NCBI GenBank assembly: GCA_963781585.1 | Contig: CAWAGQ010000004.1 | Coordinates: 736,001-800,000 of the forward strand | Length of the DNA stretch: 64,000 nt | From: an uncultured Gemmatimonadaceae bacterium | GTDB lineage: Bacteria; Gemmatimonadota; Gemmatimonadetes; Gemmatimonadales; Gemmatimonadaceae | Direction of reading: 5' to 3' | In this document: in pieces, positions 1 through 64,000 of the stretch | Numbering within the stretch: position 1 is the stretch's first letter | Layout: every line of letters starts with the position of its first letter | Notes under the pieces: generated by a model | What the model was told of the DNA's origin: nothing | The model's database searches: none | Seen by the model: the letters and a program-made list of their open reading frames with translations, nothing else | Made by a program: the position numbers and the translations under genes

Positions 1-3000
1 CACCGCTTCACGACGTTTGGGTCAGCCGCAGTAGTCGCTCTCGGTCTGGGCTGGAGTTCCGCGACCGCCCAGTCGGGCCCGTCCTCGGGACCGGTGGCGC
101 CGGAGTTCGAGCACCTGCACTTCCGGTCCATCGGTCCGGCGACCATGTCGGGCCGGATAGCGGATCTGGCGGTGTTCGAGGCCAATCCCGCGATCTTCTA
201 CGTCGGCAGCGCACACGGCGGGGTCTGGAAGACGACAAGCAAGGGTGCCCTGTTCACGCCGCTGATGCAGGATCAGGGACTCCTCTCGATCGGTGACGTC
301 ACCGTCTCGCAGCAGGATCCCGATCTGGTGTGGGTTGGTACCGGCGAATCGAACAATCGCCAGAGTACCTCCTGGGGCGACGGCGTCTTCAAGTCGACCG
401 ATGGCGGGAAATCGTTCCAGTTCATGGGACTGGGCAACTCCAAGCACGTGGGCCGCATCGTTATCGACCCCGGCAACAACGACGTCGTGCTGGTGGCCGC
501 CACCGGACCGCTGTTTGGTCCTGGCGGCGATCGCGGCGTCTACAAGACCGTGGATGGCGGCAAGACCTGGAAACAGGTACTCAAGGTCGACGACGAGACC
601 GGGGCGAACGATCTGGTGATGGCCACGACCGATCCCCGGATCCTCTTTGCCTCGACATACCAGCGACGCCGGACCGCGTGCTGCATGAACGGCGGCGGAC
701 CCGGGAGCGGCATCTGGAAGTCCACGGACGGCGGCGACACGTGGCGCCGGGTGAGCGGTGGCGGACTTCCCGGTGAGTCGCTGGGGCGCATCGCGGTCGA
801 TGTGTATCGGAAGAACGCGAACATCGTGTACGCGTCGATCGAGGGACCCGGGACAGGGGGACGCGGCTTCGGCGGCGGCGGGGCCGCGCCGGAACCCGAC
901 ACGGCGGCGGGGCGCGGCGGTCAGGCTGGTGGTCGAGGGGGGCGCGGTGGCGGCGGCGGAGCCGATCAGGGCGTCACGGGGCTCTATCGCTCCGACGACG
1001 GCGGACAGAACTGGCACAAGGTGAGCAGCAACAATCCGCGGCCGATGTATTTCAGCCAGGTTCGCATCGATCCGAACAATCCGGACCGCGTCTACATGGG
1101 CGGCGTCGGCCTGCAGATGACCATCGACGGCGGGCAGACCTTTGCAACCGACGCGGCGCTGGTCGCCCACGATGACATCCACGCGATCTGGATCGATCCG
1201 GGTAACTCGAATCACCTCCTGATCGGCAATGACGGCGGCGTGTACGAATCCTTCGACATGAGCAAGACGTGGACGTTCATGCCGAACCTGCCGGTAGGGC
1301 TCTTCTACCACGTCAGCTACGATATGGAGATGCCCTACAACGTCTGCGGCGGCATGCAGGACAACTACGACTGGTGCGGACCGAGCGCGTCGCGGCACGG
1401 CAACGGCATCATGAACTACGACTGGTTCCAGGTGCAGGGTGGTGACGGTTTCGTGGCACTGCCCGACCAGCGCGACTCGCGGTTCGTCTACACCGAGTCG
1501 CAGGATGGGAACATGATTCGTCGCAACAAGATCACCGGCGAATCGAAGAGCATCCGGCCGAACGCGAACAACGTCACGCCGCCTCCGGCCGAGGGCGAGA
1601 CGTTCCGGTTCCATTGGGACACGCCGATGATCCTCTCGCCGAACGATCCCGGCATTCTGCTGGTCGCGGCCAATCGCGTCTTCCGATCGACCGACCACGG
1701 CGACTCGTGGACGGTCATCAGTCCCGACCTCACGACCAACGCCGACCGCGACACGATCGTGACCATGGGGCTCAAAGGGAGCGACATCAGGATTTCGCGC
1801 GACGACGGCATCTCGCAATGGCCGACGATCGTCGCACTGGCGGAGTCGCCGCGGCAGCCGGGCGTTTACTACACCGGCACGGACGACGGCGTGGTGAGTA
1901 TTTCGCGCGACGGAGGAAAGAGCTGGCAGAACATCACCACGCGGCTTTCCGGATTCCCGGCCGGCGCATTTGTCTCCGAGGTGGTTCCGTCGCGTTTCGA
2001 CGCCGGCACGGTGTACATCACCGTCGACAACCACCGGCTGAATGACTTCGAAACCCATATGTGGGTGAGCAACGACTTCGGTGCAACGTTCCGCTCGCTC
2101 AACGGCGACCTCCGCGGTCAGGTGGTCAAGACGCTGACGGAAGACCAGCGCAATCCGGACGTGCTCTACATTGGTACCGAGACGGGAATCTTCCTGTCGC
2201 TCGATCGCGGAAAGACGTGGCGCCGGCTAAAGGCCAACCTGCCCACTGTGCGGGTCGACGAGATCACCCTGCATCCGCGCGACAACGCGATGATCGTCGC
2301 GACCCATGGTCGGGCCCTCTGGATCCTCGATCATCTCGAGCCGATTCAGGAGTACACCGCGGTCGCCTCGGCGGGCGGAGACGCCAGACTGTTCTCGGTG
2401 CCGAACGCCCTCGAGTGGAAGGCGAAGGACGATCGCAACGACGAATTCTGGGGCCACAACTACTTCATCGGCGAGAATCCGCCCACCGACGCCGTCATCG
2501 AGTTCGATCTCAAGCGTCCCGTCAACAACCTTTCGGTCAGGGTGACGGACGGGTCGGGGCGCACGGTCCGCGACATCACGGCGCCGGCGAATCGGCGGCA
2601 GGCCGGCATTCAGGCCGTCTGCTGGGATCTGCGCGTGGAGCCGATCGAGACGCCTAACGCTGGAGGGGGCGGTGGGCGGGGCGGTGCCGGACGTGGTGGG
2701 GGTGGAGGCGGCGGTGGCGGGCGCGGTGGCGCTCAGGCCGACATCCCGGGCGTACCAACGCCTCTTCCGACTCCCGGGTATCTGCCGTCCGATCCCTGCG
2801 CCCCCGAAGGCGGTGCGGGCGGTCGTGGTGGCGGTTTCGGTGGCTTCGGTGGGGGAGGCGGCGCGGGTCCGCACGTGCTGCCAGGAACGTACACGGTCGC
2901 GCTCATGGTCGACGGGAAACAGGTCGACAGCAAGTCCATGAAGGTGGTGATGGACCCGGCCGTACAACTCTCCGACGCGCAGCGTCGGCGCTACAACGAG

Positions 3001-6233: not shown

Positions 6234-6310
6234 GTGTCCCGGAGATCCGAAGGAGTTGTGGGCGGCCTCTGGGTTCAAGCTTTGCGGCGGCCATTTCCGC
6301 CCCATACTCG

Positions 6311-6787
6311 TTAGGTGCCGGATGTGCGGGGGGCGGGCAGCGGGTCGGCGGCGTCGAGCGTGGCCCGAACGGAGGCTGCCCATCGGCGCACCCGGTCGAT
6401 GTGGCCCTGCGCGCCCGCGGACTCGCTCGCCGGTGGCAGCGCGTCCGCCGCGGTCAGCGGCCATGTCGTCGGCCACCACGCCGGCGGAACGGCGTTCTTC
6501 TCGCGCACGCGTGCCGGCCCCTCGAACCGGCGGCGCGCCTCCCGCAACAGCTCCTTCGGCGTGGCGACGCCGTCCATGGATTGGGCGAGCATCTGGCGCC
6601 ACATGGCAAGCGCGGCGCCCACGTAGCCCTCCGGATGCTGCAGCGAATAGCACGCCACCGTGAGATGATGCACCGCGCCAAAGGCCGGCGGAAACGCCAG
6701 CTCGATGGCCAGGAGTGCATCGAAACGTGTCCGGCACGTGTCGCCGTCGGAGATGCCGGCACCGCACTGCGCACATGCGTCAGTCAT
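6311..6787 (-). CDS. DUF5946-like hypothetical protein with N-terminal CxxC
   Basis: CAQCGA start, C...FDALLA.E, HHLTVACYSLQHP motif; co-oriented and 1 nt from the upstream gene. Confidence 0.65.
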   Translation of the reverse strand: MTDACAQCGAGISDGDTCRTRFDALLAIELAFPPAFGAVHHLTVACYSLQHPEGYVGAALAMWRQMLAQSMDGVATPKELLREARRRFEGPARVREKNAVPPAWWPTTWPLTAADALPPASESAGAQGHIDRVRRWAASVRATLDAADPLPAPRTSGT

Positions 6788-6788
6788 G

Positions 6789-11858: not shown

Positions 11859-11970
11859 CGCCCGAGAGGCCGGAGGAGAGCCGCCTTCCCATGATGCGCG
11901 ACGTCGGTACGTTATGGAGTGCATCCCCTTCCCGTTCGTGATACACCTCCGGTCCCGCCTCCAGGCCGCC

Positions 11971-13971
11971 ATGCGCACTGTCTCGTTAGGCGCGTTCATG
12001 ACCCTCATCGCCGCGACGGCGGGCCGGTCGCAATCGGTGCGTCTCCACGTTGACCGGCGCGAGCCCGTGCTCGGCAGCCGCGCGTTCGGCGCCGCGGGAG
12101 CCTACGAGAAGCTGATCGGGACGGTGGAGTTCCAGTTCGACCCGGGACTTCCCGCCAATGCGATGATCGTCGATCTGCCGCTGGCCCCGCGCAACGCGGA
12201 TGGCCGGGTGGTGGTTACCGCCGACTTCTATCTCCTCAAGCCCGTCGATCCGGAGAACGGCAACGGACGGCTCTTCTACGAGGTCGGGAATCGTGGCGGC
12301 AAGGGCATGCTGGTCACGTTTCAGAAAGCGACGGGCTCGACCGATCCGTCCACCGAGGCGCAGTTCGGGGACGCGTGGCTCATGGAGCGGGGGTTCTCGC
12401 TGCTCTGGATGGGGTGGCAGTGGGACGTGCCTGACGGGCGCATGCGGATGGAGATGCCGATCGCGACCGAGGATGGCCGCCAGATCACCGGACTGGTACG
12501 CGGGAACTTCATTCCCGATATCCGTGCGGACACCGAGTCGCTGGCCGATCGCGGGCACAAGGGATATCCGGTGCTCGATCCGCGGAGCCCCGATAACGTG
12601 ATGACCGTGCGTGCGAACCGGACGGATTCGCCGCAGGTGGTGCCACATGAGAAGTGGCGATTCGTCGGCGATTGGAGCGTGAGCCTCGACGGCGGATTCG
12701 AGCCGGGGATGATCTACGATGTCGTCTACCGGGCCCGAGATCCGCGTGTTGTGGGCGTTGGACTTGCCGGCACGCGAGACATCATCAGCTTCTTCAAGTA
12801 CGAGAAGGGGCCTGCGAATCCGTTGCCCACGATTCGCTACGCGCTCGCCTGGGGAGGATCGCAGAGCGGTCGATTCCTCCGCCACTTTCTCTACCAGGGT
12901 TTCAACGCCGACGCGCAGGGGCGGCGGGTCTTCGACGGCGTGATCGACGAGCGCGGCGGTGCCGGCCGCGGGTCGTTCAATCATCGCTTCGCGCAGGCGT
13001 CGCGCGACGCGCTGGAGCATTACAACATTCTTTTCCCCGTGGACATGTTCCCGTTCACGGATGGCCTCGAGACCGACCCGCTCACCGGCGAGACCGACGG
13101 CTTGCTGGCGCGAGCCGACCGGAGCGGCACAGCGCCCAAGGTCTTCCACATCCTCTCGGGCTCGGAGTACTGGAATCGCGCCGGGTCCCTGCTGCACACG
13201 GACGTGACGGGCGCGCGGGACGTCGCTGTACCGGCGAATGTCCGTCTGTACTTCATCTCGTCGGCGCCGCACATCATCGGTCCCCGTCCGCCCACCTCGC
13301 ACCGGTCCGGCACACTGGTCGGGCAGGCCGCGCTCAATCCGCTCGATCCCCGTCCGGTGGTGCGCAGCCTGTTCGACGCCATGGACCGCTGGGTCACCGA
13401 CGACATCGACCCGCCGGCGAGCCGCTATCCGCAGATTGCCGATGGCACGCTGGTGCCTCGCCAACGCGGTGGATGGCCCGCGATACCCGGATATCGCTTT
13501 CCGCCACCGCAACTCATCACGTATCGGCTCGACTTCGGCCCCAACTGGTCGCGCGGCATCGTCGACAACGAGCCACCGAAGATCGGCGCCCCATTCGCGG
13601 TCCTCGTGCCGGCCGTAGATGCCGACGGCAACGACCGCGCAGGCGTTCGTATTCCGGAACTCGCCGTCCCGCTCGGCACGTTCTTCGGCTGGAACTACCG
13701 GGACGCCAGTATCGGGGCTCCGGAACACCTGGCGGGTGAGATCGGCTCGTACATCCCGTTCGCCCGCACACGCGTCGAGCGCCACCGCAATGGCGATCCG
13801 CGTCTCTCGATCGAGGAGCGCTACCCGAACAAGGACGACTACATGGCGAGGATCGAGAAGGCGGCGAGGGACCTTGTGACCCACGGCTATCTGTTGGCGC
13901 GAGACGTGCCCGATGTGGTGGCGCGGGCCGCGGTGCTCTGGGACTGGGCGATCAGCCCGTCGCCTCGATGA
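11971..13971 (+). CDS. Secreted alpha/beta hydrolase domain-containing protein
   Basis: Signal-peptide-like N-terminus (MRTVSLGAFMTLIAATAGRSQ); YEVGNRGGK, GWQWD, nucleophile-elbow-like WGGSQSGRFLR, C-terminal DPRLSIEERY. Confidence 0.8.
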   Translation: MRTVSLGAFMTLIAATAGRSQSVRLHVDRREPVLGSRAFGAAGAYEKLIGTVEFQFDPGLPANAMIVDLPLAPRNADGRVVVTADFYLLKPVDPENGNGRLFYEVGNRGGKGMLVTFQKATGSTDPSTEAQFGDAWLMERGFSLLWMGWQWDVPDGRMRMEMPIATEDGRQITGLVRGNFIPDIRADTESLADRGHKGYPVLDPRSPDNVMTVRANRTDSPQVVPHEKWRFVGDWSVSLDGGFEPGMIYDVVYRARDPRVVGVGLAGTRDIISFFKYEKGPANPLPTIRYALAWGGSQSGRFLRHFLYQGFNADAQGRRVFDGVIDERGGAGRGSFNHRFAQASRDALEHYNILFPVDMFPFTDGLETDPLTGETDGLLARADRSGTAPKVFHILSGSEYWNRAGSLLHTDVTGARDVAVPANVRLYFISSAPHIIGPRPPTSHRSGTLVGQAALNPLDPRPVVRSLFDAMDRWVTDDIDPPASRYPQIADGTLVPRQRGGWPAIPGYRFPPPQLITYRLDFGPNWSRGIVDNEPPKIGAPFAVLVPAVDADGNDRAGVRIPELAVPLGTFFGWNYRDASIGAPEHLAGEIGSYIPFARTRVERHRNGDPRLSIEERYPNKDDYMARIEKAARDLVTHGYLLARDVPDVVARAAVLWDWAISPSPR

Positions 13972-14095: not shown

Positions 14096-14117
14096 CGGCG
14101 CGTGCAATTCCTGCGAG

Positions 14118-20645: not shown

Positions 20646-22096
20646 ACGACCTCGAATTGTGCCGGCCGACCGGTGTAGAGGCACGTCTTCGGCGCCTCAC
20701 GCGACCGGAAGTCCTCGTCCGGAATGACGCGAATGGTGGCTTTCGTTTCTTCCTTCACCTTGGCCTCCACCTCCGGGTCGCCGCACCAGCCGGCGTAGAC
20801 GAAGGCACCGTCGCCGTCCATGATCTCGCGGAAGCGGTCATAGGTGATGGGCTCGCGAACGGTGTTGGCGTCCGCGCGCGCGCGGGCGGCTGCCAGCATG
20901 TCGTGCTGGATCTGCTCCAGCAGTCCGGTGACGTCGCCGGCGACGGCAGACAAGCCGATCGACATCTTGTCGCGCGTGTCGCGGCGAGCTGCCATGCACG
21001 ATCCCTTGTCCAGGTCGCGGGGGCCGATCTCCAGCCTCAGCGGCACCCCACGGAGCTCCCACTCATAGTACTTGGCGCCGGGCTTTACTCCATCGCGGCC
21101 GTCGATCCACACGCGGATCCGGTCATCGCCGCGGCCGCCCCAGTTGGTCAGGTCGCTCCGAACCCGATCGGCCACTTCCATGAGGCGTGCCCGTTCGGCG
21201 TCGCTCTTCCAGATGGGAACGATCACGACCTCGATCGGCGCCAGACGCGGCGGCATCCGCATGCCGTTGTCGTCACCGTGCGTCATCACCAGTCCGCCCA
21301 CCAGACGTGTGGAGACGCCCCAACTGGTGTTCCAGGCATGCTCGATGCTCCCGCTCTCGCTCTGGAACTTGAGGTCGAATGCCCTGGAGAAGTTCTGACC
21401 GAGATCGTGCGAGGTGCCGGCCTGGAGGGCCTTGTTGTCCTGCATGATGGCTTCACACGCATAGGTGCGCAGCGCACCGGCGAAGCGTTCGGAATCGGTC
21501 TTGAGCCCGGTCACCACCGGCATGGCCATCCACTGCTCCATGAACTCGCGATACAGGTCGAGGATCAGGCGAGCTTCCGCTTCCGCCTCGGCATGGGTGG
21601 CGTGCGCCGTGTGTCCCTCCTGCCAGAGGAACTCCAGCGTACGCAGGAACAGCCGGGTGCGCATTTCCCAGCGCACCACATTGGCCCACTGGTTGATCAG
21701 GATGGGGAGGTCGCGGTAGCTCTGCACCCACTTGGCGTACATCGCATAGATGATCGTCTCGGACGTCGGGCGGATGACGAGCGGCTCGGCGAGCTTCTGG
21801 CCGCCGCCGTGCGTCACCACGGCGGCCTCGGGCGCGAATCCCTCGACGTGCTCGGCCTCCTTGTGCAGGAAGCTCTCGGGGATCAACAGAGGGAAATAGG
21901 CGTTCTGGTGCCCGGTGGCCTTGAACATGGCGTCGAGCGCGCGCTGCATCCGTTCCCAGATGCCGTACCCGTTAGGCCGGATGACCATGCAGCCGCGGAC
22001 CGGAGAGTAGTCCGCCAGTTCGGCGCGGAGCACCACTTCGTTGTACCAGGCGGCGAAGTCGGCTGCGCGGGTGGTGAGTTTCCTATCGTCTGACAT
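20627..22096 (-). CDS. proS: Proline--tRNA ligase (archaeal/eukaryote-like type)
   Basis: HVEGFAPE, RPTSET, NQWANVVRWE, FLRTLEFLWQEGHT, QAGTSHDLGQNF, C-terminal AKAY. Confidence 0.97.
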   Translation of the reverse strand: MSDDRKLTTRAADFAAWYNEVVLRAELADYSPVRGCMVIRPNGYGIWERMQRALDAMFKATGHQNAYFPLLIPESFLHKEAEHVEGFAPEAAVVTHGGGQKLAEPLVIRPTSETIIYAMYAKWVQSYRDLPILINQWANVVRWEMRTRLFLRTLEFLWQEGHTAHATHAEAEAEARLILDLYREFMEQWMAMPVVTGLKTDSERFAGALRTYACEAIMQDNKALQAGTSHDLGQNFSRAFDLKFQSESGSIEHAWNTSWGVSTRLVGGLVMTHGDDNGMRMPPRLAPIEVVIVPIWKSDAERARLMEVADRVRSDLTNWGGRGDDRIRVWIDGRDGVKPGAKYYEWELRGVPLRLEIGPRDLDKGSCMAARRDTRDKMSIGLSAVAGDVTGLLEQIQHDMLAAARARADANTVREPITYDRFREIMDGDGAFVYAGWCGDPEVEAKVKEETKATIRVIPDEDFRSREAPKTCLYTGRPAQFEVVWAKAY

Positions 22097-38169: not shown

Positions 38170-38181
38170 GGCGTTACCGGA

Positions 38182-39907: not shown

Positions 39908-40288
39908 CTATGGTCGTACCACGGCGCCTAACGCGAATCCGACGGCCAGGCCGCCCCAGAAGTAGAGCCGCTTGAACCAGGGGCGCCGGGGCTCCTCGAG
40001 GATGACCCACTGGTCGGTGGTCAGGCGGGTGGTCTGGCCGATGATCAGTGCCGTGGCGACGCCCCGGTCGACGGAGATCACGCGGAGCCGTGCCACGAGC
40101 GCGTCGCGGTGCAACGGGTCCACGGCAAGGCCGGTGAGGTCGCGGTGCACCCAGCCTTCGGTGCCCACGGTGAAGGTGACCGTGGTGTCGCCCACCTGCG
40201 AAATCTCGAACCGGACGCCCTTGACCTGTGCCCCGAGCGTTGCGCCAGACCCGGCGAGCAGTGCCACCGCGAGCAGGAATTGGCGCAT
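39908..40288 (-). CDS. Hypothetical exported protein with C-terminal membrane anchor
   Basis: Signal peptide MRQFLLAVALLAGSGATLGA-Q, beta-rich core, C-terminal RRPWFKRLYFWGGLAVGFALGAVV. Confidence 0.75.
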   Translation of the reverse strand: MRQFLLAVALLAGSGATLGAQVKGVRFEISQVGDTTVTFTVGTEGWVHRDLTGLAVDPLHRDALVARLRVISVDRGVATALIIGQTTRLTTDQWVILEEPRRPWFKRLYFWGGLAVGFALGAVVRP

Positions 40289-40444: not shown

Positions 40445-41712
40445 TCAGCCGAACAGCTTCACCAGCCCCTTGAGATCATTGAGCATCACGAGCGCGAACA
40501 GCAGCGCGATCGCGACCAGACCGGCCCGAAGAATATACTCGCGCGTGCGAGCGCTGAAGGCACTGCCCTTGATCGCTTCGGCCAGGTTCAGGAGGATCTG
40601 GCCCCCGTCGAGGATCGGGATAGGGAGAAGGTTGAGGATGGCCACGTTGATGCTGAGGAATGCAATGAGCGACAGCAGAGTCTCGAGGCCCGAACGGGCC
40701 GCCTCGACCGACGACCGCGCGATCTGGATCGGGCCGCCCAGCTGGGTGACCGAAACCTGCCCCGACACCAGCCCGACGATCACCTGAACGACACTCCCCC
40801 CCATCGCCACCGTGGCGTGCCAGCCGGCGGCGACCGACGACGCCGGCGTTAGGCGTTCGCTCAGTACCCTGGTGGTCGAGTAGGCGCCGATCTTCGGCAC
40901 CTGCACCGGGCGCCCGGTCACCAGGTTGGTGTCGGGCGCCAGCTGCGGCACCATGTGCAGCGTCACGCGCTCACCACGGCGCATCACGTCCAGCTCGAGG
41001 ACCTTCCCCTGCGACTGCGCGATCTGGGCGGTCACGTCCGACCACCGGCTTCACCGGCAGTCCGTTGACCGCCACGATGCTGTCGGCCGCCATCATGCCG
41101 GCGCGATCGGCCGGGAGTCCGGCCAGCACCGAATCCACCACCGGCGGGCGATATGGTCGACCGTACGCCGCAAAGAGTCCCACCGACACCACCAGCGTGA
41201 GCACCGCGTTCATCGTGACGCCGGCAAACAGAATGATCAGACGCGCCCACAACGGCCTTCGATTCGAACCACCGGTTGGGCGGAACCGGCCGCGGCCCGA
41301 ACGGCACCATGGCGTTGGGGTCCCAGTCCGCACGGGCGCTTCGCTCCCCGGACGCCCTGGGCAGCGCTCGGCCTGGGTCGCGCCGGAGTCCCTGTCTGCG
41401 GACGCCGTCGGGCAGCGCGGTGTAGTCGAGCGCTTCACCCGGGCGGGGCGCCCCCACCTTCACCTCACTCCCGCCTTCGAGAAACGCCATCGCCTCGTCT
41501 TCGCGCGAGGCCATGCGCACGTAGCCGCCGATCGGGAGCCAGCCGATGAGGTACTCGGTCTCGCCGTGGCGCCGCTTCCAGAGCGCGCGACCAAAGCCGA
41601 TGGAGAACCGCGGGGCGTAGACACCCAGCAGCTTGGCGGCCATGAAGTGCCCGAGCTCGTGCACCAGCACCACGAGGCCGAAGACGAGAACCGGCGCGAA
41701 CCAGCTCAGCAT
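40445..41712 (-). CDS. rseP: RIP metalloprotease RseP (split by apparent single-base insertions)
   Basis: HELGH, PIGGYVRM, PDZ segment and NLLPIPILDGG fall in three frames; shifts near 41255 and 41045. Confidence 0.88.
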
Positions 41713-47844: not shown

Positions 47845-48243
47845 CTACCGCTTGCTGAACTGGAATCGCTTCCTGGCTCCCGGGCGCCCCGGCTTCTTCC
47901 GCTCCACGGTCCGGGCATCGCGGGTGAGGAGGCCGAGGTCGCGCAGCTTGCGCCGATGAACCTCGTCGACAAGCACCAGCGCCCGGGCTGCCGCCAGCCG
48001 CAGCGCGCCCGCCTGTCCGGCCTGTCCCCCGCCCTCCACCCGCGCTTTCACGTCAAACCGTCCGAGCGTGTCGGTGGCGGTGAACGGCTGCTGGATCGCC
48101 GAAACGAGCGCCGGCCGCGGGAAGTAGTCGCCTAACGTGCGACCGTTGATGTCCCACTTGCCCGAACCGGGACGGAGGTACAGACGGCAGACCGACTCCT
48201 TGCGCCGTCCCACGGCGTGAATGGGGGTACTCTCAGGCATCAC
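47845..48243 (-). CDS. rpsI: 30S ribosomal protein S9
   Basis: [36 protein letters not shown]. Confidence 0.98.
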
Positions 48244-50581: not shown

Positions 50582-50584
50582 TGC

Positions 50585-52084
50585 CTAACGAAGTGCCTCG
50601 CGCCGCGCCGCCTCGCGCCAGGCATCGGCGGCCGGCGCTTCGGCCGGCGCGGCGCCGTTGCCGGTTCCGCGATCGGCGTGCGCGAGAAGTGCCGCTGTCA
50701 GGGCCGCGAGGCGCTTCTCGGCAGTCGGGGCGCCGCCGTCGGCAAAGTCCGGCAGCCGTCGCTCCAGCCACTGGCTGTCGAACGCCCCGCTGCGAAACTC
50801 CGGCGCCTCGAGCACCCGGAGATGAAACTCGCGCGAGCTCTCCACGCCCACGATGCGCAGTTCGCGCAGGGCCCGCTGCATCCGGCGGATCGCCTGATCG
50901 CGGGTGGACGCCCAGGCAATGAGCTTGCCGAGCAGAGAGTCGTAGTGCAGACCGACATGTGTCCCGGTCTCGATCGCGCCATCCCATCGCACCCCCGGCC
51001 CCGCCGGCAGGCGCAGGTACTCGATCTGCCCGGTGGACGGGAGAAATCCGGACCGCGGGTCTTCGGCGGTGATGCGGCATTCGATCGCGCATCCGCGCGG
51101 CTCGAGGGTCGCCGGCAGCGTCACCCGCGCACCCTCGGCAATGCGAATCTGCCATTGCACGAGATCGATGCCGGTCACCATTTCCGTCACCGGATGTTCC
51201 ACCTGGAGACGGGTGTTCATTTCCAGGAAGTAGAACTGGCCCTGCCGGTCGAGCAGGAACTCGCAGGTGCCGGCGTTGACGTAGCCCGCGGCGCGCGCGG
51301 CGGCGACCGCCGTCTCTCCCATCCGGCGCCGGAGCACCGGAGTGACCGCGACGCTCGGCGCCTCCTCCAGCATCTTCTGGTGGCGCCGCTGGAGCGAGCA
51401 CTCGCGTTCACCCAGCGACACCACGCCGCCGTGCCGGTCGGCCAGTATCTGGATCTCCACGTGACGCGGGCCATCCAGGTACTTCTCGACATAGACCGCG
51501 TCGTCGCCGAACGCGTTGCGCGCCTCGCGTCGCGCGGCATCGAGGGCCGGTGGGAGATCGGCGGCTCGTTCGACGAGGCGCATCCCCTTCCCGCCGCCAC
51601 CGGCGGCCGCTTTCAGCAGAACGGGGTAGCCGAAGCGCTCGGCGGCGGACGTCGCGTCGTCGGCGTCACGCACGTTGTGCGTGGTTCCCGGTACCAGCGG
51701 AACGCCGGCCCGTCGGGCGAGCAGTCTCGCAGTCGTCTTGTCGCCCAGGCTGGCGATGGCCTCGGGAGGAGGACCGATCCAGACGATACCGCTGTCCCGC
51801 ACCTGCCGCGCAAAGGCCGCACGCTCCGACAGAAAGCCGTATCCGGGATGAATGGCGTCGGCCTTCGCGGCAAGGGCCGCTTCCACGATCCGATCGCCAC
51901 GAAGGTAGCTCTCGCTCGAAGGCGCCGGCCCGATGTGGACGGCTTCGTCGGCTGCCCGGACATGAGGTGCGGCTGCGTCGGCATCCGAGTATACCGCCAC
52001 CGAGGCGATCCCGAGCTCCCGGCAGGCGCGAATCACCCGCACCGCGATCTCTCCCCGGTTGGCGACCAGGATCTTCCTGAACAT
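50585..52084 (-). CDS. Biotin carboxylase subunit of an acyl-CoA (acetyl/propionyl) carboxylase
   Basis: KILVANRGEIA, HPGYGFLSE, GGGGKGMR, ERECSLQRRHQK, EMNTRLQVEHPVTE. Confidence 0.95.
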   Translation of the reverse strand: MFRKILVANRGEIAVRVIRACRELGIASVAVYSDADAAAPHVRAADEAVHIGPAPSSESYLRGDRIVEAALAAKADAIHPGYGFLSERAAFARQVRDSGIVWIGPPPEAIASLGDKTTARLLARRAGVPLVPGTTHNVRDADDATSAAERFGYPVLLKAAAGGGGKGMRLVERAADLPPALDAARREARNAFGDDAVYVEKYLDGPRHVEIQILADRHGGVVSLGERECSLQRRHQKMLEEAPSVAVTPVLRRRMGETAVAAARAAGYVNAGTCEFLLDRQGQFYFLEMNTRLQVEHPVTEMVTGIDLVQWQIRIAEGARVTLPATLEPRGCAIECRITAEDPRSGFLPSTGQIEYLRLPAGPGVRWDGAIETGTHVGLHYDSLLGKLIAWASTRDQAIRRMQRALRELRIVGVESSREFHLRVLEAPEFRSGAFDSQWLERRLPDFADGGAPTAEKRLAALTAALLAHADRGTGNGAAPAEAPAADAWREAARREALR

Positions 52085-52109: not shown

Positions 52110-53660
52110 CTAGAGAGGGATGTTGCCATGCTTCTTGGGCGGATTCCGGTCGCGCTTGCCCTGCAGCATCTCGAGCGCGTCGATGAGACGGGGCCGCGTG
52201 TCACGCGGGTCGATGATGTCGTCCACGTAGCCGCGTGACGCGGCAACGTACGGATTCGCGAACTTGTCCGTGTACTCCGTGACCCGCTCGTCGGTGGCCG
52301 CCTGCGGATCCGCGCTGTCGGCGAGCTCCTTGCGGAAGAGAATCTCCACCGCACCCTTCGGTCCCATCACCGCGATCTCCGCCGAGGGCCAGGCCACATT
52401 GTAGTCCCCCCGGATGTGCTTGGAGCTCATCACGTCGTACGCGCCACCATAGGCCTTGCGGGTGATCACGGTCAGCTTCGGAACCGTGGCCTCGCAGTAG
52501 GCGAACAACAGTTTGGCGCCCTGGCGGATGATGCCGCCGTGTTCCTGCGCCACGCCGGGGAGGAACCCCGGTACATCCTCGAACGTCACCAGCGGAATGT
52601 TGAAGGCGTCGCAGAACCGTACGAAGCGGGCGCCCTTGACCGAGGCGTTGATGTCGAGCACGCCGGCCAGCACTGCCGGCTGATTGGCGATGATCCCGAC
52701 GCTGTGTCCGCCGAGATGGGCGAACCCGCAGATGATGTTGCCGGCGAACTCGCGGTGAATCTCGAAGAACGCACCGTCGTCCACCACCGCCCGGATCACG
52801 TTGTGCATGTCGTACGGCTTGCTGGGATGGTCGGGCACGATGTCGAGCAGTGCGTCATCCCGCCGCGTGCGGGGATCGGTGCCGGGGCCGCGCGGCGGAT
52901 CCCCCAGGTTGTTGGACGGGAGGTAGCGCAGCAGCGCGCGGATCTGCTGCAGGCAGTCCGCCTCCGAGTCGCAGGCCACGTGGGCCACCCCCGACGTGGC
53001 GGCGTGGGTGTCCGCGCCTCCGAGTTGTTCCATCGTGACGTCTTCGTGGGTCACGGTCTTCACCACGTTCGGCCCGGTCACGAACATGTACGAGGTGCCG
53101 CGGACCATGAACACGAAATCGGTGATGGCCGGGGAATAGACCGCGCCGCCGGCGCACGGGCCGAGAATCGCGGAGATCTGGGGTACCACCCCCGACGCCA
53201 GCGTGTTGCGGAGGAAGATGTCGGCATAGCCGCCTAACGAGACGACGCCCTCCTGGATACGCGCTCCACCGGAGTCGTTCAACCCGATCACCGGGGCGCC
53301 CGACCGCACCGCCAGATCCATGACCTTGCAGATCTTCTCCGCGAAGGCCTCGGACAGCGAACCGCCGAAGACGGTGAAGTCCTGGGAGAACGCGAACACC
53401 AGCCGTCCGTCGATGCGCCCATGCCCGGTCACCACCCCGTCGCCATAGTACTTCTGGTCGGCGAGACCGAAGTCGGTGCTGCGATGGGTCACGAACCGGT
53501 CGAGCTCGACGAACGACCCGTCATCGAGCAGGAGATCGAGCCGCTCCCGCGCCGAGAGCTTGCCCTTGCCGTGCTGCGCCGCGACGCGTTCGGGGCCGCC
53601 TCCCTGCTCCGATTCCTCACGCCGCTGTCGCAGCAGATCGAGCTTCTCGCGCATGGTCAT
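52110..53660 (-). CDS. pccB: Acyl-CoA (propionyl/methylmalonyl-CoA-type) carboxylase carboxyltransferase beta subunit
   Basis: [51 protein letters not shown]. Confidence 0.9.
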
Positions 53661-53772
53661 GGCGCGGAAAGGTATCCCGCGCCGGGAACCTTCTCCAGCC
53701 GCGCGCCCGGTGGCGTGCCGCTTGCGGGAGACTCGTAATGCGGCGTAGCTTCCGCCGCGAGCCCACCATCGC

Positions 53773-56436: not shown

Positions 56437-58263
56437 TCAGGTCGCCGGTCCCTCGTCCTCGTCCTCGATCGCGAGCGGCGGTTCCTCGCCGGCGGTCTGC
56501 ACGTCCGGCAGCACGTCGCCGTCCTCGGTATGGATCTTGGGCGGGGTTTCGGGCCGCGGCGGCTGGTCCTCGGGAATGTTCACGACCGTGAGTACGATGC
56601 GCCGGTGGATCGGGTCCACCTCGACCACCCGCAGGTCGAGATTCATCCCCTCGTAGCAGACGTCGGCCGGGGAATCGATCGGCGTGTCCGACGGAATGTG
56701 GCTCAGCGGCACGAACCCCTCGATGTCGTTGCCGATGTCCACCACCACTCCCTTGTCCATGAGCCGGACCACGCGACCGCCCAGCTCGGTGCCGACCAGG
56801 TAGGTCTCGCCGATGCGCAGCCACGGATCTTCCGTCGCCTGCTTGAGGCCGAGCGAGATCCGCTTGTTGTCGCTGTCGATGTTGAGGATGATCACGTCGA
56901 CCGTGTCGCCCTTCTTCACCACTTCCGACGGGTGTTGCACGCGCTTCGTCCAGCTCATGTCGGAGATGTGAATCAGTCCGTCGATGCCCGGCTCGATTTC
57001 GACGAAGGCGCCGAAACTGGTGAGGTTGCGGACCTTTCCCGACAGCCTTGTCCCCACCGGGTACTTGAGCGGCAGCACCATCCACGGATCCTGCTCGGTC
57101 TGCTTCATCCCCAGCGAGATCTTCTCCTCGTTGGGATCGACCTTCAGGACCACCGCCTCGATCGTCTCGCCGATGGAGACGATCTTCGACGGATGCCGCA
57201 CGTTGCGCGTCCAGCTCATCTCGCTGATGTGGACCAGCCCCTCGATGCCCGGTTCGAGCTCGATGAACGCGCCGTAGTTGGTGATCGAGACGACCTTGCC
57301 GGTAACCCGCGTTCCGACCGGGTACTTCTCGATCACATCCTTCCAGGGGTACGGCTGGAGCTGCTTGAGGCCTAACGAGATGCGCTCGCGCTCCCAGTCG
57401 ATGTCGAGCACCTTGACCTCGAGCTCCTGCCCGATCTGGACCATCTCGCTGGGATGCGAGATGCGTCCCCACGACATGTCGGTGATGTGAAGCAGGCCGT
57501 CCACACCACCCAGGTCGATGAAGGCGCCGAAATCGGTGATGTTCTTCACCACGCCCATCCGCACCTGATCCTTCTGGAGCTCCTTCATCAGCTTCTCGCG
57601 CTTGCCGGCGCGTTCGGCTTCCAGGATCACGCGGCGCGACACGACGATGTTGCGGCGGCGCTTGTTGAGCTTGATGATCTTGAACTCGAACTTCTGTCCC
57701 AGCAGCTCGTCGATGTTCGGCACGCGTCGCAACGCGATCTGCGAACCGGGGAGGAACGCGTCGACCCCCATCAGGTCCACCACCACCCCGCCCTTGATCT
57801 TCTTCACCAGCGTGCCTTCGACCGGCTGGTCAGTCTCGTAGGCGATGCGGATCTTCTCCCAGACCCGCATGAAGTCGGCCTTCTTCTTCGACAGCACGAC
57901 CGACCCTTCCTGGTCCTCGAGATGCTCGAGGAGCACTTCGACTTCGTCGCCCGGCTTCAGCTCGGGCATGTCCTTGAATTCTTCCAGCGGGATCGTGCCC
58001 TCGGATTTGAATCCGATGTCCAGCACGACCATGTTGTCGCGGATCTCGAGTACCCGGGACTTGACGATCTCGCCTTCGTCGATCGAGGCGAGCGTCCCGT
58101 TGTACAACGCCATCATGCGCTCGTACTCGTCGCTCGAGTATTCGTCCTCGTCGTAGAGTTCGGGGCGCCGGTTGGCAAGCGGTCGCAACTGCCCCTTCTG
58201 CGACTGTCGCTTCTCGGGGATCGCTACGGCCGTGCCGGTTGGGGTGGTCTCGATGTCAGGCAT
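56437..58263 (-). CDS. rpsA: 30S ribosomal protein S1
   Basis: Repeated S1 domains (DIGFKSEG, AFLPGSQ, DFGAFIDLGGVDGLLHI, YGAFIELEPGIEGLVH). Confidence 0.98.
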   Translation of the reverse strand: MPDIETTPTGTAVAIPEKRQSQKGQLRPLANRRPELYDEDEYSSDEYERMMALYNGTLASIDEGEIVKSRVLEIRDNMVVLDIGFKSEGTIPLEEFKDMPELKPGDEVEVLLEHLEDQEGSVVLSKKKADFMRVWEKIRIAYETDQPVEGTLVKKIKGGVVVDLMGVDAFLPGSQIALRRVPNIDELLGQKFEFKIIKLNKRRRNIVVSRRVILEAERAGKREKLMKELQKDQVRMGVVKNITDFGAFIDLGGVDGLLHITDMSWGRISHPSEMVQIGQELEVKVLDIDWERERISLGLKQLQPYPWKDVIEKYPVGTRVTGKVVSITNYGAFIELEPGIEGLVHISEMSWTRNVRHPSKIVSIGETIEAVVLKVDPNEEKISLGMKQTEQDPWMVLPLKYPVGTRLSGKVRNLTSFGAFVEIEPGIDGLIHISDMSWTKRVQHPSEVVKKGDTVDVIILNIDSDNKRISLGLKQATEDPWLRIGETYLVGTELGGRVVRLMDKGVVVDIGNDIEGFVPLSHIPSDTPIDSPADVCYEGMNLDLRVVEVDPIHRRIVLTVVNIPEDQPPRPETPPKIHTEDGDVLPDVQTAGEEPPLAIEDEDEGPAT

Positions 58264-59142: not shown

Positions 59143-60412
59143 GCGCCAGGTCCCGCCAGAAATCGGGGTACGACACGCCCACGCATTCGGGATCGTCCAC
59201 GACGATGTCGCAGTTCGCCGAGGCCCCGAGCACGCCGAAGGCCATGGCCAGGCGGTGATCGCCCCGGGTGCGCACCTGTCCGCGCAGCGGCGCACGGGTG
59301 CCCTGGATCCGCATCCCGTCAGGCAGCTCGTCGGCCTCCACGCCAATGGCGCGCAGCCCGGCGACCACCCCGCCGATCCGATCGCTCTCCTTCACGCGCA
59401 GTTCGCCGGCCCCGCGGATGACCGTCTCCCCGTCGGCGCGCGCGGCGACGCACGCCAGCACCGGCAATTCGTCGATCATCGACGCCACGCCGGCGGGGCC
59501 AATCGCGGTGGCCCGCAACGGAGCGGGGCGCACCACCAGGTCGCCGGCCGGTTCGGCCGGGTCGGGCTGCGCCGCGGTCATATCAATGGATGCGCCCATC
59601 CGGCGCAGCACCTCGAGGAATCCCGTGCGCCCGGGGTTCAGGCCGACGTTGCGCAGCACGACCTCGCCGCCGTCGGCCAGTGCGCCTAACGCGGCGAAGA
59701 ACGCCGCGGCCGAGGGATCGCCCGGGACGTCGAGCGTGAACGGTTCCAGTTCGGCTCCCGGCCGGAGCGTGATGCGTCCGGCCACCGCCGATACGTCGGC
59801 ACCGAGCGTCCGCAGGAAACGCTCGGTGTGATCGCGTGTGGGAGACGGTTCGATCACCACCACCTCGACCCCGGCGCAGAAGCCGGCCAGCAGCACCGCG
59901 CTTTTCACCTGGGCGCTGGCGGTCTCCATCCGCCACTCGATGCCACGCAGGGCGCCGCCGTGGATGGTGAGCGGAAGCCCGTCCCAGCCGGACGCGGAGT
60001 CGACCTGCGCGCCCAGCTCCGCCAGCGCCGCGGTCACCCGCCGCATCGGGCGGCGGCTCAGGCTCGCGTCGCCGGTGAAGGTGGACGCGAAGGGCTGCGC
60101 CGCCATCACGCCCATCATCAGACGCGCGGTGGTGCCGCTGTTGCCGCAGTAGAGGTCCGCGTCCGGCGCTCGGAGTCCATGACGGCCCCGGCCCGCGATC
60201 CGGAGGTCCGCGGCCAGCGCCGGAACCTCGACGCCTGACGAGCGGAGCACGCGGGCGGTCGACTCGAGATCGTCGGAGCGGAGCACGTCGCGCACCCGCG
60301 ACGTCCCGTGAGCCAGCGCTGCGAAGATCAGGCTTCGGTGCGAGATCGATTTATCCCCGGGAACGCGAACCTCCCCGCGCACCACCAGCCGGTCGGTCCC
60401 CACCGCCGTCAC
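59129..60412 (-). CDS. aroA: 3-phosphoshikimate 1-carboxyvinyltransferase (class II EPSP synthase)
   Basis: PGDKSISHR, GNSGTTAR, SAQVKSA, RDHTER, LRVKESDRI, DHRLAM. Confidence 0.97.
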   Translation of the reverse strand: MTAVGTDRLVVRGEVRVPGDKSISHRSLIFAALAHGTSRVRDVLRSDDLESTARVLRSSGVEVPALAADLRIAGRGRHGLRAPDADLYCGNSGTTARLMMGVMAAQPFASTFTGDASLSRRPMRRVTAALAELGAQVDSASGWDGLPLTIHGGALRGIEWRMETASAQVKSAVLLAGFCAGVEVVVIEPSPTRDHTERFLRTLGADVSAVAGRITLRPGAELEPFTLDVPGDPSAAAFFAALGALADGGEVVLRNVGLNPGRTGFLEVLRRMGASIDMTAAQPDPAEPAGDLVVRPAPLRATAIGPAGVASMIDELPVLACVAARADGETVIRGAGELRVKESDRIGGVVAGLRAIGVEADELPDGMRIQGTRAPLRGQVRTRGDHRLAMAFGVLGASANCDIVVDDPECVGVSYPDFWRDLARVIA

Positions 60413-61284: not shown

Positions 61285-62174
61285 TCGGTGATGGCGCCGG
61301 CGGCGACGAGGCTGGCGCGCAGCGCGGCCGAGTGCGATTCGGCCAGGGGCACCAGCGGGAGGCGGAGCACGTTCTCGATCCGGCCCATCATCGCCAGCGC
61401 GGCCTTGGCGGGAATCGGATTCGATTCCACGAACGCCGCGGCCATCCAGGGTTGCAGCCGCCGATGCATCACCCGCGCGGCGGCCAGGTCGCCGGCCGCG
61501 CAGGCGTCGGTCAGTTGGGCCATCTGGCGGGGCGCGGCGTTGGCGGTCACCGAGATCACGCCGTCGCCGCCTAACGCCATGACCGGCAGCGTGAGCGCGT
61601 CGTCGCCCGACAGCACCGCGAACCCCGGCGGACGCTCGCGGATGATCTCGGCAATCTGCCCGATCAGCCCCGACGCCTCCTTCACCCCCGCGATGCCCGC
61701 GAACTTCGACAGCTCGATCGTGGTCCGCGCTTCGATGTTGCTGCCGGTGCGGCCGGGCACGTTGTAGACGATGATCGGGAGGTCGATGGCGTCGGCGATG
61801 GCGCGGAAGTGCGCCAGGATGCCGCGCTGGGGCGGCTTGTTGTACATCGGCGAGACGTGCAGGAGATGGGTCGCGCCCACGGCCTTCATTTCCCGCGACA
61901 GCGCGATGGCCCTGGCGGTGTCGTTCGAGCCGGCACCCGCCACGATCGGCACGCGACCGGCCGCCACCTCGACCGTGATCTCGACCACGCGCCGATGCTC
62001 CGCCGGCGTCATGGTGGCCGCTTCACCAGTGGAGCCGCACGGGACCAGAAAGTGCACCCCTTCCCCGATCTGCCACTCCACGAGACGCCGCAGGGCGTCC
62101 TCGTCCACCGAACCGTTGCGCTGGAACGGCGTGACGAGGGCCGTGCCGCATCCCATCAGTTGTCGCGCGCTCAT
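61281..62174 (-). CDS. dapA: 4-hydroxy-tetrahydrodipicolinate synthase
   Basis: GSTGE, YNKP, YNVPGRT, GVKEASG, LSGDD, ESNPIPAK. Confidence 0.97.
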   Translation of the reverse strand: MSARQLMGCGTALVTPFQRNGSVDEDALRRLVEWQIGEGVHFLVPCGSTGEAATMTPAEHRRVVEITVEVAAGRVPIVAGAGSNDTARAIALSREMKAVGATHLLHVSPMYNKPPQRGILAHFRAIADAIDLPIIVYNVPGRTGSNIEARTTIELSKFAGIAGVKEASGLIGQIAEIIRERPPGFAVLSGDDALTLPVMALGGDGVISVTANAAPRQMAQLTDACAAGDLAAARVMHRRLQPWMAAAFVESNPIPAKAALAMMGRIENVLRLPLVPLAESHSAALRASLVAAGAITE

Positions 62175-62908: not shown

Positions 62909-64000
62909 GCCTCCCCCGCCGGAAAGAAGGTCTGATGCAGCGCCCGCATTGCCGGGACCACCTGATCGCCGTCCACCAGCATCGTGAGGTTGATGCCGCT
63001 CGCGCTCAGCGAGAGCATGTGGACGCGGATGGAGCCCAGCGACGCCAGCGCGCGGGACATGGAGATACTGCTTGCGGCCAAACCGGCGCCGACCAGGGCC
63101 ACAATGCCACGGTTGCGTTCCACGGATACGTCCCCGAGGTGCGACAGATCCACCACCAGTGAGTCAAGATGGCGCGGATCGTCGACGGTGAGGCTCACGC
63201 TGATCTCGGACGTGGCCACCACGTCGACCGACGTACGATGGCGGTCGAAGATCTCGAAGATGCTGCGCAGGAATCCGTGCGCCAGCAGCATCCGGGGCGA
63301 CCGGACTCGGATTACCGTCACACCCTCCTTGCCGGCGATGGCGGTCACCGGTCTCAGCGGCGCGTCGAAGGTGATCAGCGTGCCGCGCCCCGCGGGGTTC
63401 CGGGAATTGAGGACGTACACCGGAATGCCGAGCCGCACGGCCGGCGCGATGGTGCTCGGGTGCAGGACCTTGGCGCCGAACGACGCGAGCTCGCTGGCCT
63501 CGTCGAAACGGATGCGTTCGATCAGACGCGCCCCGTCCACGATCCGGGGGTCGGCGGTGAGCATGCCGTCCACGTCGGTCCAGATCTCGATCGACTCCGC
63601 GCCTAACGCGGCGCCGAGCAGCGAGGCGCTGAAGTCGCTGCCGCCGCGCCCGAGGGTGGTCACCACCTTCTGTTCCGTGCCGCCCACGAACCCGCCGATC
63701 ACCGGCACCCGCCCCTGCGCCACCAGCGGCTGCAGAATGCGCCGCGCCGCCTCGGCGATCTTCTCGGGCCTGGGCTCCGCCTTGCCGAACTCGTCGCCCG
63801 TGATGATCACCGTGCGGGCATCAATCGGATCGGCCGGCACACCCCGTGTCCGGAACGCCGCCACCAGGAGCTCGGTCGACAGCGCTTCCCCCTTGGACGC
63901 GATCGCATCGAGGCTGCGCGGCGTCAGGTGCCCCAGCACCGACAACGCTTCGGCCAGGCTCGCCAGTTCGTCGCAGGTGGCGCGCAGTTCACCGATTACG
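62905..64000 (-). CDS. lysC: Aspartate kinase (lysine-sensitive AK-III-like), 5'-truncated
   Basis: GEALS, TTLGRGGSDFSA, WTDVDG, FGAKVLHP, two ACT domains; frame is open to the window end. Confidence 0.93.
   Translation of the reverse strand, partial: VIGELRATCDELASLAEALSVLGHLTPRSLDAIASKGEALSTELLVAAFRTRGVPADPIDARTVIITGDEFGKAEPRPEKIAEAARRILQPLVAQGRVPVIGGFVGGTEQKVVTTLGRGGSDFSASLLGAALGAESIEIWTDVDGMLTADPRIVDGARLIERIRFDEASELASFGAKVLHPSTIAPAVRLGIPVYVLNSRNPAGRGTLITFDAPLRPVTAIAGKEGVTVIRVRSPRMLLAHGFLRSIFEIFDRHRTSVDVVATSEISVSLTVDDPRHLDSLVVDLSHLGDVSVERNRGIVALVGAGLAASSISMSRALASLGSIRVHMLSLSASGINLTMLVDGDQVVPAMRALHQTFFPAGEA

Follow-up and report, generated by a model that had tools for sequence, protein, structure and literature searches.

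Background

In only two families of Proteobacteria has it been established that sequence-specific self tags bias the exchange of DNA, and HIP1 of the cyanobacteria is a recent candidate. Uptake sequences, known as DNA uptake sequences (DUS) and uptake signal sequences (USS), are described in PMC1939737 as non-palindromic words that mostly do not stand in inverted pairs, show no orientation bias and lie inside open reading frames (ORFs) in 35-65% of cases; dialects of DUS are treated in PMC7371117. HIP1 (GCGATCGC) is, according to PMC5861425, a hyper-abundant octamer that exceeds expectation 15- to 300-fold, is conserved both inside ORFs and between them, and has no role at the peptide or RNA level. 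PMC13756078 presents it as being recognised by two methylases, and as now proposed to be an uptake-type signal that aids transformation. Here we describe the octamer CGTTAGGC and its heptamer GTTAGGC (GCCTAAC on the other strand), dispersed over a stretch of 64,000 nucleotides from an uncultured Gemmatimonadaceae bacterium (contig CAWAGQ010000004.1 of assembly GCA_963781585.1, positions 736,001 to 800,000; the whole stretch is called the window below) and recurring in some of its relatives. A preliminary description, made from the letters of the window, had proposed that the word is selected at the DNA level and may belong to a lineage-specific recognition system, no cognate protein being evident in the window.

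With DUS and USS the word has in common that it is short, non-palindromic, lineage-specific and present about once per kilobase (0.27-1.00/kb in the clades described below and 0.70/kb in Gemmatirosa), that it has no orientation bias for replication or transcription, that it lies mostly in ORFs, in permissive frames, and rarely in inverted pairs, and that it has clade dialects, a cloud of one-off variants and a scarcity in mobile DNA. It differs from them in belonging to another phylum, in being another word, in having 7-8 informative positions without flanking signal and in not being enriched in non-coding plasmid DNA. The features shared with HIP1 are the hyper-abundance of an octamer, its conservation in ORFs and at motif sites beyond the synonymous background, its non-random spacing and the absence of a peptide- or RNA-level role. 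HIP1, however, is palindromic, has two known methylases and is nearly phylum-wide, whereas CGTTAGGC is asymmetric and patchy within one family. The reading that we favour, with a probability of about 40%, is that CGTTAGGC is a self-tag of the DUS/USS kind, maintained by uptake bias and homologous recombination.

The kind of feature is known; what is new is this instance, its phylum, the use of an otherwise unused codon and the identity with the core site of integrons. In the literature searched, no paper describes the word as a bacterial genomic motif. The 7- and 8-mers occur as whole words in an integron paper and as a primer in a cancer paper, and the matches listed for the 6- and 7-mers mostly concern telomeres, none of them a bacterial genome-wide motif.

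Over-representation in the window

The window, with a GC content of 0.66-0.71, contains 17 copies of CGTTAGGC (5 on the + strand and 12 on the - strand) and 19 of GTTAGGC (5 and 14, respectively), for every one of which the preliminary description had given the right position. In 100 dinucleotide shuffles the octamer was found 0.79 times on average (maximum 4) and the heptamer 2.01 times (maximum 6), and no shuffle reached 17 or 19 copies, respectively. Under a third-order Markov model, no 8-mer of the window is more strongly over-represented than CGTTAGGC (n=17, expected number (E)=0.61, z=20.9), and all 19 TTAGGC hexamers lie within GTTAGGC. Genes were called with our own codon-likelihood caller, trained on 32 NCBIfam-confirmed genes, and their names are backed by NCBIfam and Pfam. 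A codon-aware null, in which synonymous codons were permuted within each gene so that the protein and the exact codon counts of the gene were retained, gave in 200 permutations a mean of 0.36 copies (standard deviation 0.62, maximum 4) compared to 15 genic copies of CGTTAGGC. Among the 24 single-mismatch neighbours of CGTTAGGC counted in the window, none is enriched to a similar degree, the highest being CGTTCGGC (19 copies, E 8-12.6) and CGTCAGGC (13 copies, E 3.8-5.9); nor are such neighbours comparably enriched in the relatives or on the Gemmatirosa plasmid discussed below. The preliminary description had named these comparisons, with nulls aware of dinucleotides and codons and with single-mismatch neighbours, as the places where its claim might fail, and the excess persists in both.

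Thirteen of the window copies are read as Leu-Gly on the coding strand (xxG-TTA-GGC) and two as Pro-Asn with the word on the opposite strand (CCT-AAC, at 2652 and 21970). Single copies are read as Val-Arg (GTT-AGG, coding strand), as Leu-Thr (CTA-ACG, opposite strand) and across a stop codon (CGT-TAG), and one is intergenic; these are the frames already tallied in the preliminary description. All 13 TTA codons of the called genes lie inside the motif: in this organism TTA is used solely to spell the word. The two nearest copies are 606 bp apart. The occupancy of compatible sites, that is, the share of dipeptide sites with amino acids permitting the word that actually carry it, shows no significant heterogeneity along the window (3/52 versus 12/99, p=0.26).

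Two other words of the window deserve mention. CGTCAGGC is mildly raised both in the window (13 copies, E 4-6) and on the Gemmatirosa plasmid (129 copies, E=50). Outside the motif family, the next most over-represented 8-mer is GCAGAATG/CATTCTGC (10 copies, E=1.65), whose 10 sites, for example 1653, 4365, 5279, 19080 and 63732, are mainly antisense to genes; related loci show no enrichment of this word, which is therefore probably a local codon effect.

Distribution among relatives

Relatives were retrieved with the rpsA protein of the window. The best 80 of 360 confirmed relatives provided 80 loci, or 1.33 Mb, 79 of which are titled Gemmatimonadaceae, Gemmatimonadales or Gemmatimonadota/-etes and marked as metagenome-assembled genomes (MAGs), the last record bearing the title 'unidentified bacterium'. 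In a de novo scan, the motif ranks first among the 7-mers of the window and of 17 out of 71 related loci with a length of at least 10 kb, and stands at rank 2-3 in the loci L005 and L080; no comparably strong k-mer was found in the remaining loci of the 71 scanned. An alternative dialect in the motif-less relatives was considered and rejected, the only signals being weak: GTCAGGC, one mismatch off the motif, with 11 copies (E=1.3) in L060, and CGATTAGCG, with 5 copies in L016. The density of the octamer is 0.27/kb in the clade of the window (the window and clade A, 217 kb), 1.00/kb in clades B and C taken together (107 kb) and 0.81/kb in clade D (98 kb), to be compared with 2 copies in 167 kb and 3 in 679 kb in the motif-less control groups, that is, 5 copies in 846 kb.

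On a tree of the rpsA protein, the motif-bearing genomes fall into two separate clades. Clade I (20 rows including the window, support 99) carries the GTTAGG core at densities of 0.05-2.65/kb; clade II (5 rows, support 96) is nested among motif-less genomes, including a Gemmatimonas aurantiaca MAG. The approximately unbiased (AU) test rejects joining the two (p=1e-56, for a single gene and a grouping chosen post hoc from the tree). Close relatives without the motif exist (L001, L006, L007 and L069), and the relatives span graded densities, from about 0.05 to 2.6 copies/kb, with apparent losses. Extending the count to related Gemmatimonadota genomes, as the preliminary description had advised, thus shows the motif recurring, patchily, in independent Gemmatimonadaceae MAGs and in a cultured strain. 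It is real, and lineage-specific within certain Gemmatimonadaceae.

Recoding and maintenance of sites

The way in which the word is written can be followed at the invariant peptide RISLGLK of rpsA. Motif-less genomes encode its centre by TCG-CTC-GGC or TCG-CTG-GGC, while TCG-TTA-GGC or TCG-TTA-GGN stands there in the window and in 13 of the remaining 19 genomes of clade I. In clade II this site is not recoded and two other rpsA sites are. Changes from CTC or CTG to TTA at invariant protein sites are found in motif-bearing lineages only, and the recoding within RISLGLK means that the protein is not the thing selected. An assembly or base-calling artefact, considered for the frame breaks of the window mentioned further on, is excluded, the same word being found at the same synonymous sites across numerous independent MAGs as well as in the finished plasmid of an isolate.

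Once written, the sites are kept. Fourfold degenerate sites are near saturation between the genomes compared (identity 0.41-0.64). Between L061 and L063, TTA is retained at 19 of 19 motif sites, compared to retention of the Leu codon at 12 of 33 other Leu-Gly sites (p=3e-6). The corresponding figures are 18/18 and 16/25 for L061 and L066 (p=0.006), 11/11 and 3/9 for L014 and L015 (p=0.002), 5/5 and 14/42 for L002 and L003 (p=0.008), and 4/4 and 4/17 for the window and L004 (p=0.012). Further genome pairs point in the same direction without reaching significance, and retention of motif sites against a motif-less sister is 0/13. Synonymous-site conservation in orthologues, one of the checks proposed in the preliminary description, is thus found, the TTA of the motif being kept far above other Leu codons. 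No hitch-hiking of the flanks was detected: synonymous identity beside shared motifs is 0.55-0.58, with a background of 0.57, which indicates that the word alone is held. Logos are flat beyond 8 positions, including those of intergenic copies, and a longer hidden motif was rejected on this ground.

The flanking positions are clade-specific and form dialects. In clade D, 58% of the copies have the first C and 98% the last C, compared to 85-87% elsewhere (87% in C) for the first and 66% in C for the last; clade D accepts any base at position 1, and clades B and C accept variation at position 8. One-off variants mirror these dialects, N-GTTAGGC being common in D, and CGTTAGGT and CGTTAGGG in B and C. 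The variant CGTTGGGC reaches 0.44/kb in clade D.

Amino-acid changes creating Leu-Gly motif sites are not in excess relative to motif-less relatives (92/129 versus 153/240). At Pro-Asn motif sites, the same residues are found in motif-less relatives in 17 of 40 cases, versus 30 of 46 at other sites (p~0.05, with non-independent pairs), and Pro-Asn dipeptides number 1.9-2.1 per 1000 amino acids in the dense clades C and D (L011-L015 and L061-L067), 1.5 in motif-less genomes and 1.3 in the window. Both observations on Pro-Asn hint that the drive may also alter proteins.

Strand symmetry and spacing

Leu-Gly sites (word on the sense strand) and Pro-Asn sites (word on the antisense strand) are occupied, respectively, at 13/126 and 2/25 in the window, 45/324 and 3/58 in clade A, 21/56 and 5/15 in clade B, 65/203 and 20/45 in clade C, and 90/227 and 28/59 in clade D, versus 5/1375 and 3/290 in motif-less genomes. 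The highest occupancies amount to 40-48% of all such sites. Less use is made of the Val-Arg frame, which needs AGG, and of the Leu-Thr frame, which needs CTA: their respective occupancies are 10/191 and 14/88 in clade C, and 6/214 and 6/80 in clade D. In the window, the excess of copies on the coding strand and on the - strand arises because Leu-Gly sites are about five times as numerous as Pro-Asn sites (126 versus 25) and the - strand carries the majority of the genes. In the MAG loci, intergenic copies run both ways (9:5, 2:6, 12:15 and 4:7, in total 27:33). A signal acting on RNA or translation through TTA-GGC was therefore rejected: antisense Pro-Asn sites are as occupied as sense sites, and intergenic copies stand in both orientations.

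In the densest loci, L014 and L015, the copies are spaced more evenly than expected by chance, none of 2000 random placements being as even; the same is seen in L013 (p=0.045), and no significant evenness was found in the window or in seven other loci tested. Only 9 pairs of opposite orientation within 60 bp were found in 21 loci, and terminator-like inverted pairs, as known for some DUS, were rejected for that reason.

The plasmid of Gemmatirosa kalamazoonensis

Plasmid 1 of the cultured strain Gemmatirosa kalamazoonensis KBS708 (NZ_CP007129.1, 1,106,233 bp), met through tblastn with a window protein, allows the word to be followed over a whole replicon. An initial 50-kb piece held 36 copies. 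The complete plasmid has 778 copies of CGTTAGGC, its top 8-mer (404 on the + strand and 374 on the - strand; E=39, z=118; 0.70/kb), with copies in every 25-kb window and counts per 10 kb that are under-dispersed (index of dispersion 0.65). As many as 373 of its 387 TTA codons lie within the motif. The intergenic share of the 7-mers is 145/892 (16%), non-coding sequence making up 14%.

Replichores were inferred from cumulative GC skew, with a minimum at about 1,023,000 and a maximum at about 349,000. The leading strand carries 408 of the 778 copies (52.4%, p=0.19) versus 54.4% of coding bases. Leu-Gly sites are occupied at 212/1480 (14%) in leading-strand genes and 161/1213 (13%) in lagging-strand genes, and Pro-Asn sites at 102/310 and 93/271, respectively; 67 of the 145 intergenic copies run along the leading strand (67:78). 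The mapping of strand polarity against the origin and terminus, which the preliminary description had recommended, thus reveals no polarity on this plasmid and an even spread rather than clusters.

Some other features of the plasmid were noted in passing. Outside the integron described below, the longest motif-free stretch (1,021,207-1,032,070; 10.9 kb, GC 0.74) is at the GC-skew minimum, the presumed replication origin. A second dispersed element, present in 19 copies (for example at 183,379, 218,284, 231,484 and 341,539), consists of a GACTCCACGTACG box followed by 3-4 tandem 11-bp units of the GGACTGAAG type and then a hairpin. The word GGACTGAA occurs 120 times (E=6.5).

Identity with the integron core site

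The core consensus of attC and attI sites is given in PMC12901181 as 5'-GTTRRRY-3' for the R' box and 5'-RYYYAAC-3' for the R'' box, the R'' box of the aadB attC being GCCTAAC. GTTAGGC/GCCTAAC is a canonical instance of this consensus, a match that the preliminary description did not catch. By our own arithmetic, the chance that a random 7-mer fits GTTRRRY in either orientation is about 0.2%, and we therefore treat the identity as unexplained rather than as a coincidence.

The Gemmatirosa plasmid itself carries a large sedentary integron (NZ_CP007129.1, 810,285-857,786). Its array, found via the secondary k-mer ATTCGTTA, comprises 57 same-strand attC-like repeats with a median length of 97 nt (810,285-856,158), which lie 340-3327 bp apart, start with an RYYYAAC-type box and end in ...GCAACGATTC-GTTAGGC. 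The ORF adjoining the array (856,830-857,786) is an integron integrase (TIGR02249, 423 bits for a cut-off of 265) and lies on the same strand as the called cassette ORFs. Taken together with the base before it, the R' box is an exact CGTTAGGC in 21 of the 57 repeats, which makes this the commonest form, the others being GTTAGAC, GTTAGCC, GTTATGC and so on; the R'' box was found by pattern in 34 of the 57 and is, with its following base, exactly GCCTAACG in 18 of the 57. The coding parts of the cassettes avoid the word: it occupies 0 of 47 Leu-Gly sites there versus 373 of 2693 elsewhere (p=0.002).

These data could mean that IntI, or a related tyrosine recombinase, reads thousands of dispersed R boxes for docking, for titration or as secondary, attG-like sites, or that an uptake or self-recognition specificity evolved from the attC core, with cassettes and kin DNA being captured together; we regard this as rather unlikely. 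The consensus fit, the modal R box of the 57-cassette array in a motif-bearing strain and the avoidance of the word by cassette coding parts speak for it, as do the report of integrons in Gemmatimonadota (PMC8618304) and that of natural transformation supplying cassettes to the chromosomal integron of Vibrio cholerae (PMC12614218). The dispersed copies, however, are much stricter than an attC R box. Outside the array CGTTAGGC has 721 copies (E=33), and the R-box variants of the array are not enriched (CGTTAGAC, 7 copies, E=22; CGTTAGCC, 6 copies, E=23; CGTTATGC, 1 copy), so that a tolerant recognition of the IntI type does not explain the strictness of the word; genomic IntI targets are described as requiring only GWT (bioRxiv 10.1101/2022.09.11.507474). 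The dispersed copies are also solitary, without L box, second half-site, hairpin partner, extrahelical bases or conserved flank. Lacking a partner box, they are not a set of attC or attI sites. They stand in frame in essential genes without any insertion, where insertion sites would harm, and no integron was seen within the window or the 80 MAG loci.

A combination of the two ideas can also be envisaged. The attC core may have been the seed of the specificity of an uptake-type tag, or the cassettes may have adapted to the tag. In its fullest form, which we consider unlikely but worth stating, tag and integron would be one system, in which some Gemmatimonadaceae turned the attC core of their chromosomal integron into a genome-wide word, read by an uptake receptor that coevolved with attC or by an integrase-derived protein, and passed horizontally together with its reader between at least two clades.

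Nature of the probable recognition system

That selection, as first proposed in the preliminary description, or a drive acts on the word at the level of DNA is supported by its survival of the Markov, dinucleotide and codon-preserving nulls, by its unenriched neighbours, by its recurrence in MAGs and a cultured strain and by TTA at invariant sites. The accompanying idea of a lineage-specific recognition system with its reader gene outside the window is supported as well, the motif recurring across Gemmatimonadaceae and no reader being found in the window. The candidate classes put forward at the same time have fared unequally. Chi and the FtsK-orienting polar sequences (KOPS), which are polar, and matS and parS, which are palindromic and present in few copies, do not agree with a strand-symmetric and dense motif; DUS/USS and HIP1 stand.

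A dense, strand-symmetric, even, conserved, dialectal, patchy and cassette-free word, set beside the published hallmarks of DUS and HIP1, leads us to favour an uptake-type self-tag. The word is mostly written by synonymous recoding, Leu-Gly as TTA-GGC and Pro-Asn as CCT-AAC with the word on the other strand, and a force on the double-stranded DNA word itself would hold it in place. By analogy with the known systems, the organisms would be competent and the reader would be an uptake receptor: a DNA receptor of the transformation machinery would favour fragments carrying the word, and homologous recombination would then spread or restore motif-bearing alleles, a molecular drive that may operate with or without selection for the uptake of kin DNA.

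Several observations weigh against this explanation. Nothing in an uptake-tag model leads one to expect a word identical with the integron core site. The word has only 7-8 bp and no extended flank, even in intergenic copies, and DUS and USS are longer than that. The Val-Arg and Leu-Thr frames are nearly unused in the clade of the window (1/138 and 1/91), which means that codon cost shapes the pattern strongly. No raised identity of the flanks hints at recent recombination tracts, the genomes probably being too divergent for this test, and genomes within a clade are non-independent samples. No competence, receptor or methyltransferase gene was found in the 64-kb window with NCBIfam and Pfam. 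The literature searched links no Gemmatimonadota to uptake sequences, and the ComEC survey PMC6299819 makes no mention of the phylum.

A different kind of reader would be one or more orphan DNA methyltransferases, the word being their target and being kept, in the manner of HIP1, for methylation-dependent repair, replication or chromosome structure and not for uptake. The phenomenology in common with HIP1 (PMC5861425), for which two methylases are reported (PMC13756078), recommends this possibility; even spread and site conservation fit it as well, and a mobile methyltransferase gene would agree with the patchy distribution, which may be due to horizontal acquisition. We nevertheless hold it to be improbable, the word not being its own reverse complement, and only partly a rival, as HIP1 itself is being reread in PMC13756078 as an uptake-type signal.

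An abundant nucleoid-associated or chromosome-organising protein, with weak selection on each of its binding sites, would account for a word that is even, strand-symmetric, conserved and found in each 25-kb window along a replicon of 1.1 Mb. Selection per site, however, would presumably fall far short of what is needed to fill 30-48% of compatible synonymous sites against a strong codon bias. Known structuring sites are few and mostly palindromic, and the existence of close relatives devoid of the motif is a further difficulty, which together make this explanation very doubtful.

Still harder to sustain is the idea that the word has no function of its own and arises neutrally, through a sequence-specific bias of repair or mutation, of the very-short-patch kind, which converts near-cognates to CGTTAGGC. 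It would agree with purely synonymous changes, freely evolving flanks and the moderate enrichment of the near-cognates TGTTAGGC and CGTTGGGC. The conversion of CTC or CTG to TTA, however, takes two substitutions, with intermediates (CTA and TTG) that are rare in most clades; all 7-8 positions are held and not one deamination-prone base, and the residue comparison given above suggests that Pro-Asn sites may stem from amino-acid change.

Lastly, a Chi-like recombination hotspot, or a polar signal in repair or segregation akin to KOPS or the architecture-imparting sequences (AIMS), can practically be dismissed: CGTTAGGC is, like these, an over-represented asymmetric octamer within genes, with 14 of the 19 window copies on the G-rich, gene-rich strand and a window density of about 1 per 3.8 kb, similar to that of Chi in E. 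coli, but the strand bias is explained by gene orientation and Leu-Gly availability, polarity was rejected at the scale of the replicon, intergenic copies split almost evenly, antisense occupancy equals that of sense sites, the rarest codon is used rather than common ones, and densities rise to 1-2.6 per kb, those of Chi, KOPS and AIMS being much below that of CGTTAGGC.

Individual copies and other features of the window

Eleven of the Leu-Gly copies are full octamers in sense orientation. Two are on the + strand and read TCG-TTA-GGC, at 11984..11991 in an alpha/beta-hydrolase gene (11914-13968; Ser-Leu-Gly) and at 38771..38778 in a Ser/Thr kinase gene (37750-39810). The others, on the - strand, are in accD (24984..24991, ACG-TTA-GGC, Thr-Leu-Gly), mreB (30977..30984, GCG-TTA-GGC, Ala-Leu-Gly), a hypothetical ORF (39911-40288; copy at 39926..39933, GCG-TTA-GGC), rpsI (48130..48137, ACG-TTA-GGC), a carboxyltransferase gene (52113-53774; copy at 53232..53239, TCG-TTA-GGC), rpsA (57370..57377, in RISLGLK), aroA (59684..59691, GCG-TTA-GGC), dapA (61569..61576, GCG-TTA-GGC) and an aspartokinase gene (63601..63608, GCG-TTA-GGC). 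The gene rodA (25831-27084) holds, in sense orientation on the - strand, the two copies that are heptamers only, one preceded by G (26227..26233, TGG-TTA-GGC) and one by T (26848..26854, TTG-TTA-GGC).

The Pro-Asn copies are antisense in a + strand gene of the BNR/sortilin-like type (94-3468; copy at 2652..2659, - strand) and in proS (20630-22213, - strand; copy at 21970..21977, + strand). The Val-Arg copy (24378..24385, - strand) is sense in a folC-like Mur-ligase gene (23557-24579), and the Leu-Thr copy (40847..40854, + strand) is antisense in the C-terminal part of rseP. The intergenic copy (31762..31769, + strand) lies between mreB and the ORF 31989-32426; for this ORF and for the ORF 39911-40288, the protein atlas matches are hypothetical-protein clusters only. 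The near-match CGTTAGGT pointed out in the preliminary description is present at 6309..6316 (+ strand), at the edge of the ORF 6314-6787, and is outside the copy count.

The remaining copy (50583..50590, - strand) lies across the CGT-TAG stop of a biotin carboxylase gene (50588-52084). Copies also span gene ends in clade A, at L002:17723, L003:14562, L005:17782 and L010:17748, in a similar TTCGTTAGGC or TGCGTTAGGC context, at gene ends that are not necessarily orthologous to that of the window. From these copies, the choice of stop codon appears to be recruited for spelling the word as well.

Between 40400 and 44520 on the - strand of the window, the coding phase shifts several times within the essential genes rseP, dxr, cdsA and uppS, rseP being split over two frames at about 41035. 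These breaks suggest assembly indel errors, or pseudogenes; the region contains a single homopolymer run of at least 6 bases. A tmRNA gene (14115-14474, - strand; Rfam RF00023, 163 bits) encodes the tag peptide ANNNLALAA.

Implications

A third or fourth case of a sequence-specific self tag, in a soil phylum that is abundant but little studied, would open the evolution of such signals to testing, the more so as this one offers graded densities, clear dialects, apparent losses and two separate clades. The cultured strain G. kalamazoonensis KBS708, which has a complete genome, carries the motif, so that experiments are possible. Provided that the tag aids uptake, donor DNA equipped with it could make Gemmatimonadota easier to transform and so further the development of genetic tools. 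The lack of the tag in cassettes and islands is relevant to the binning of MAGs and to the detection of horizontal transfer.

With regard to codon usage, the sole role of TTA in these genomes is to spell the tag. If the identity with the integron core is causal, natural transformation would be connected with cassette capture. Should tag and integron indeed be one system, this would be the first uptake-type signal beyond the Proteobacteria and Cyanobacteria; for the first time, the specificity of DNA uptake would be tied mechanistically to integrons, and the cells would preferentially import and recombine the DNA of their kin together with gene cassettes.

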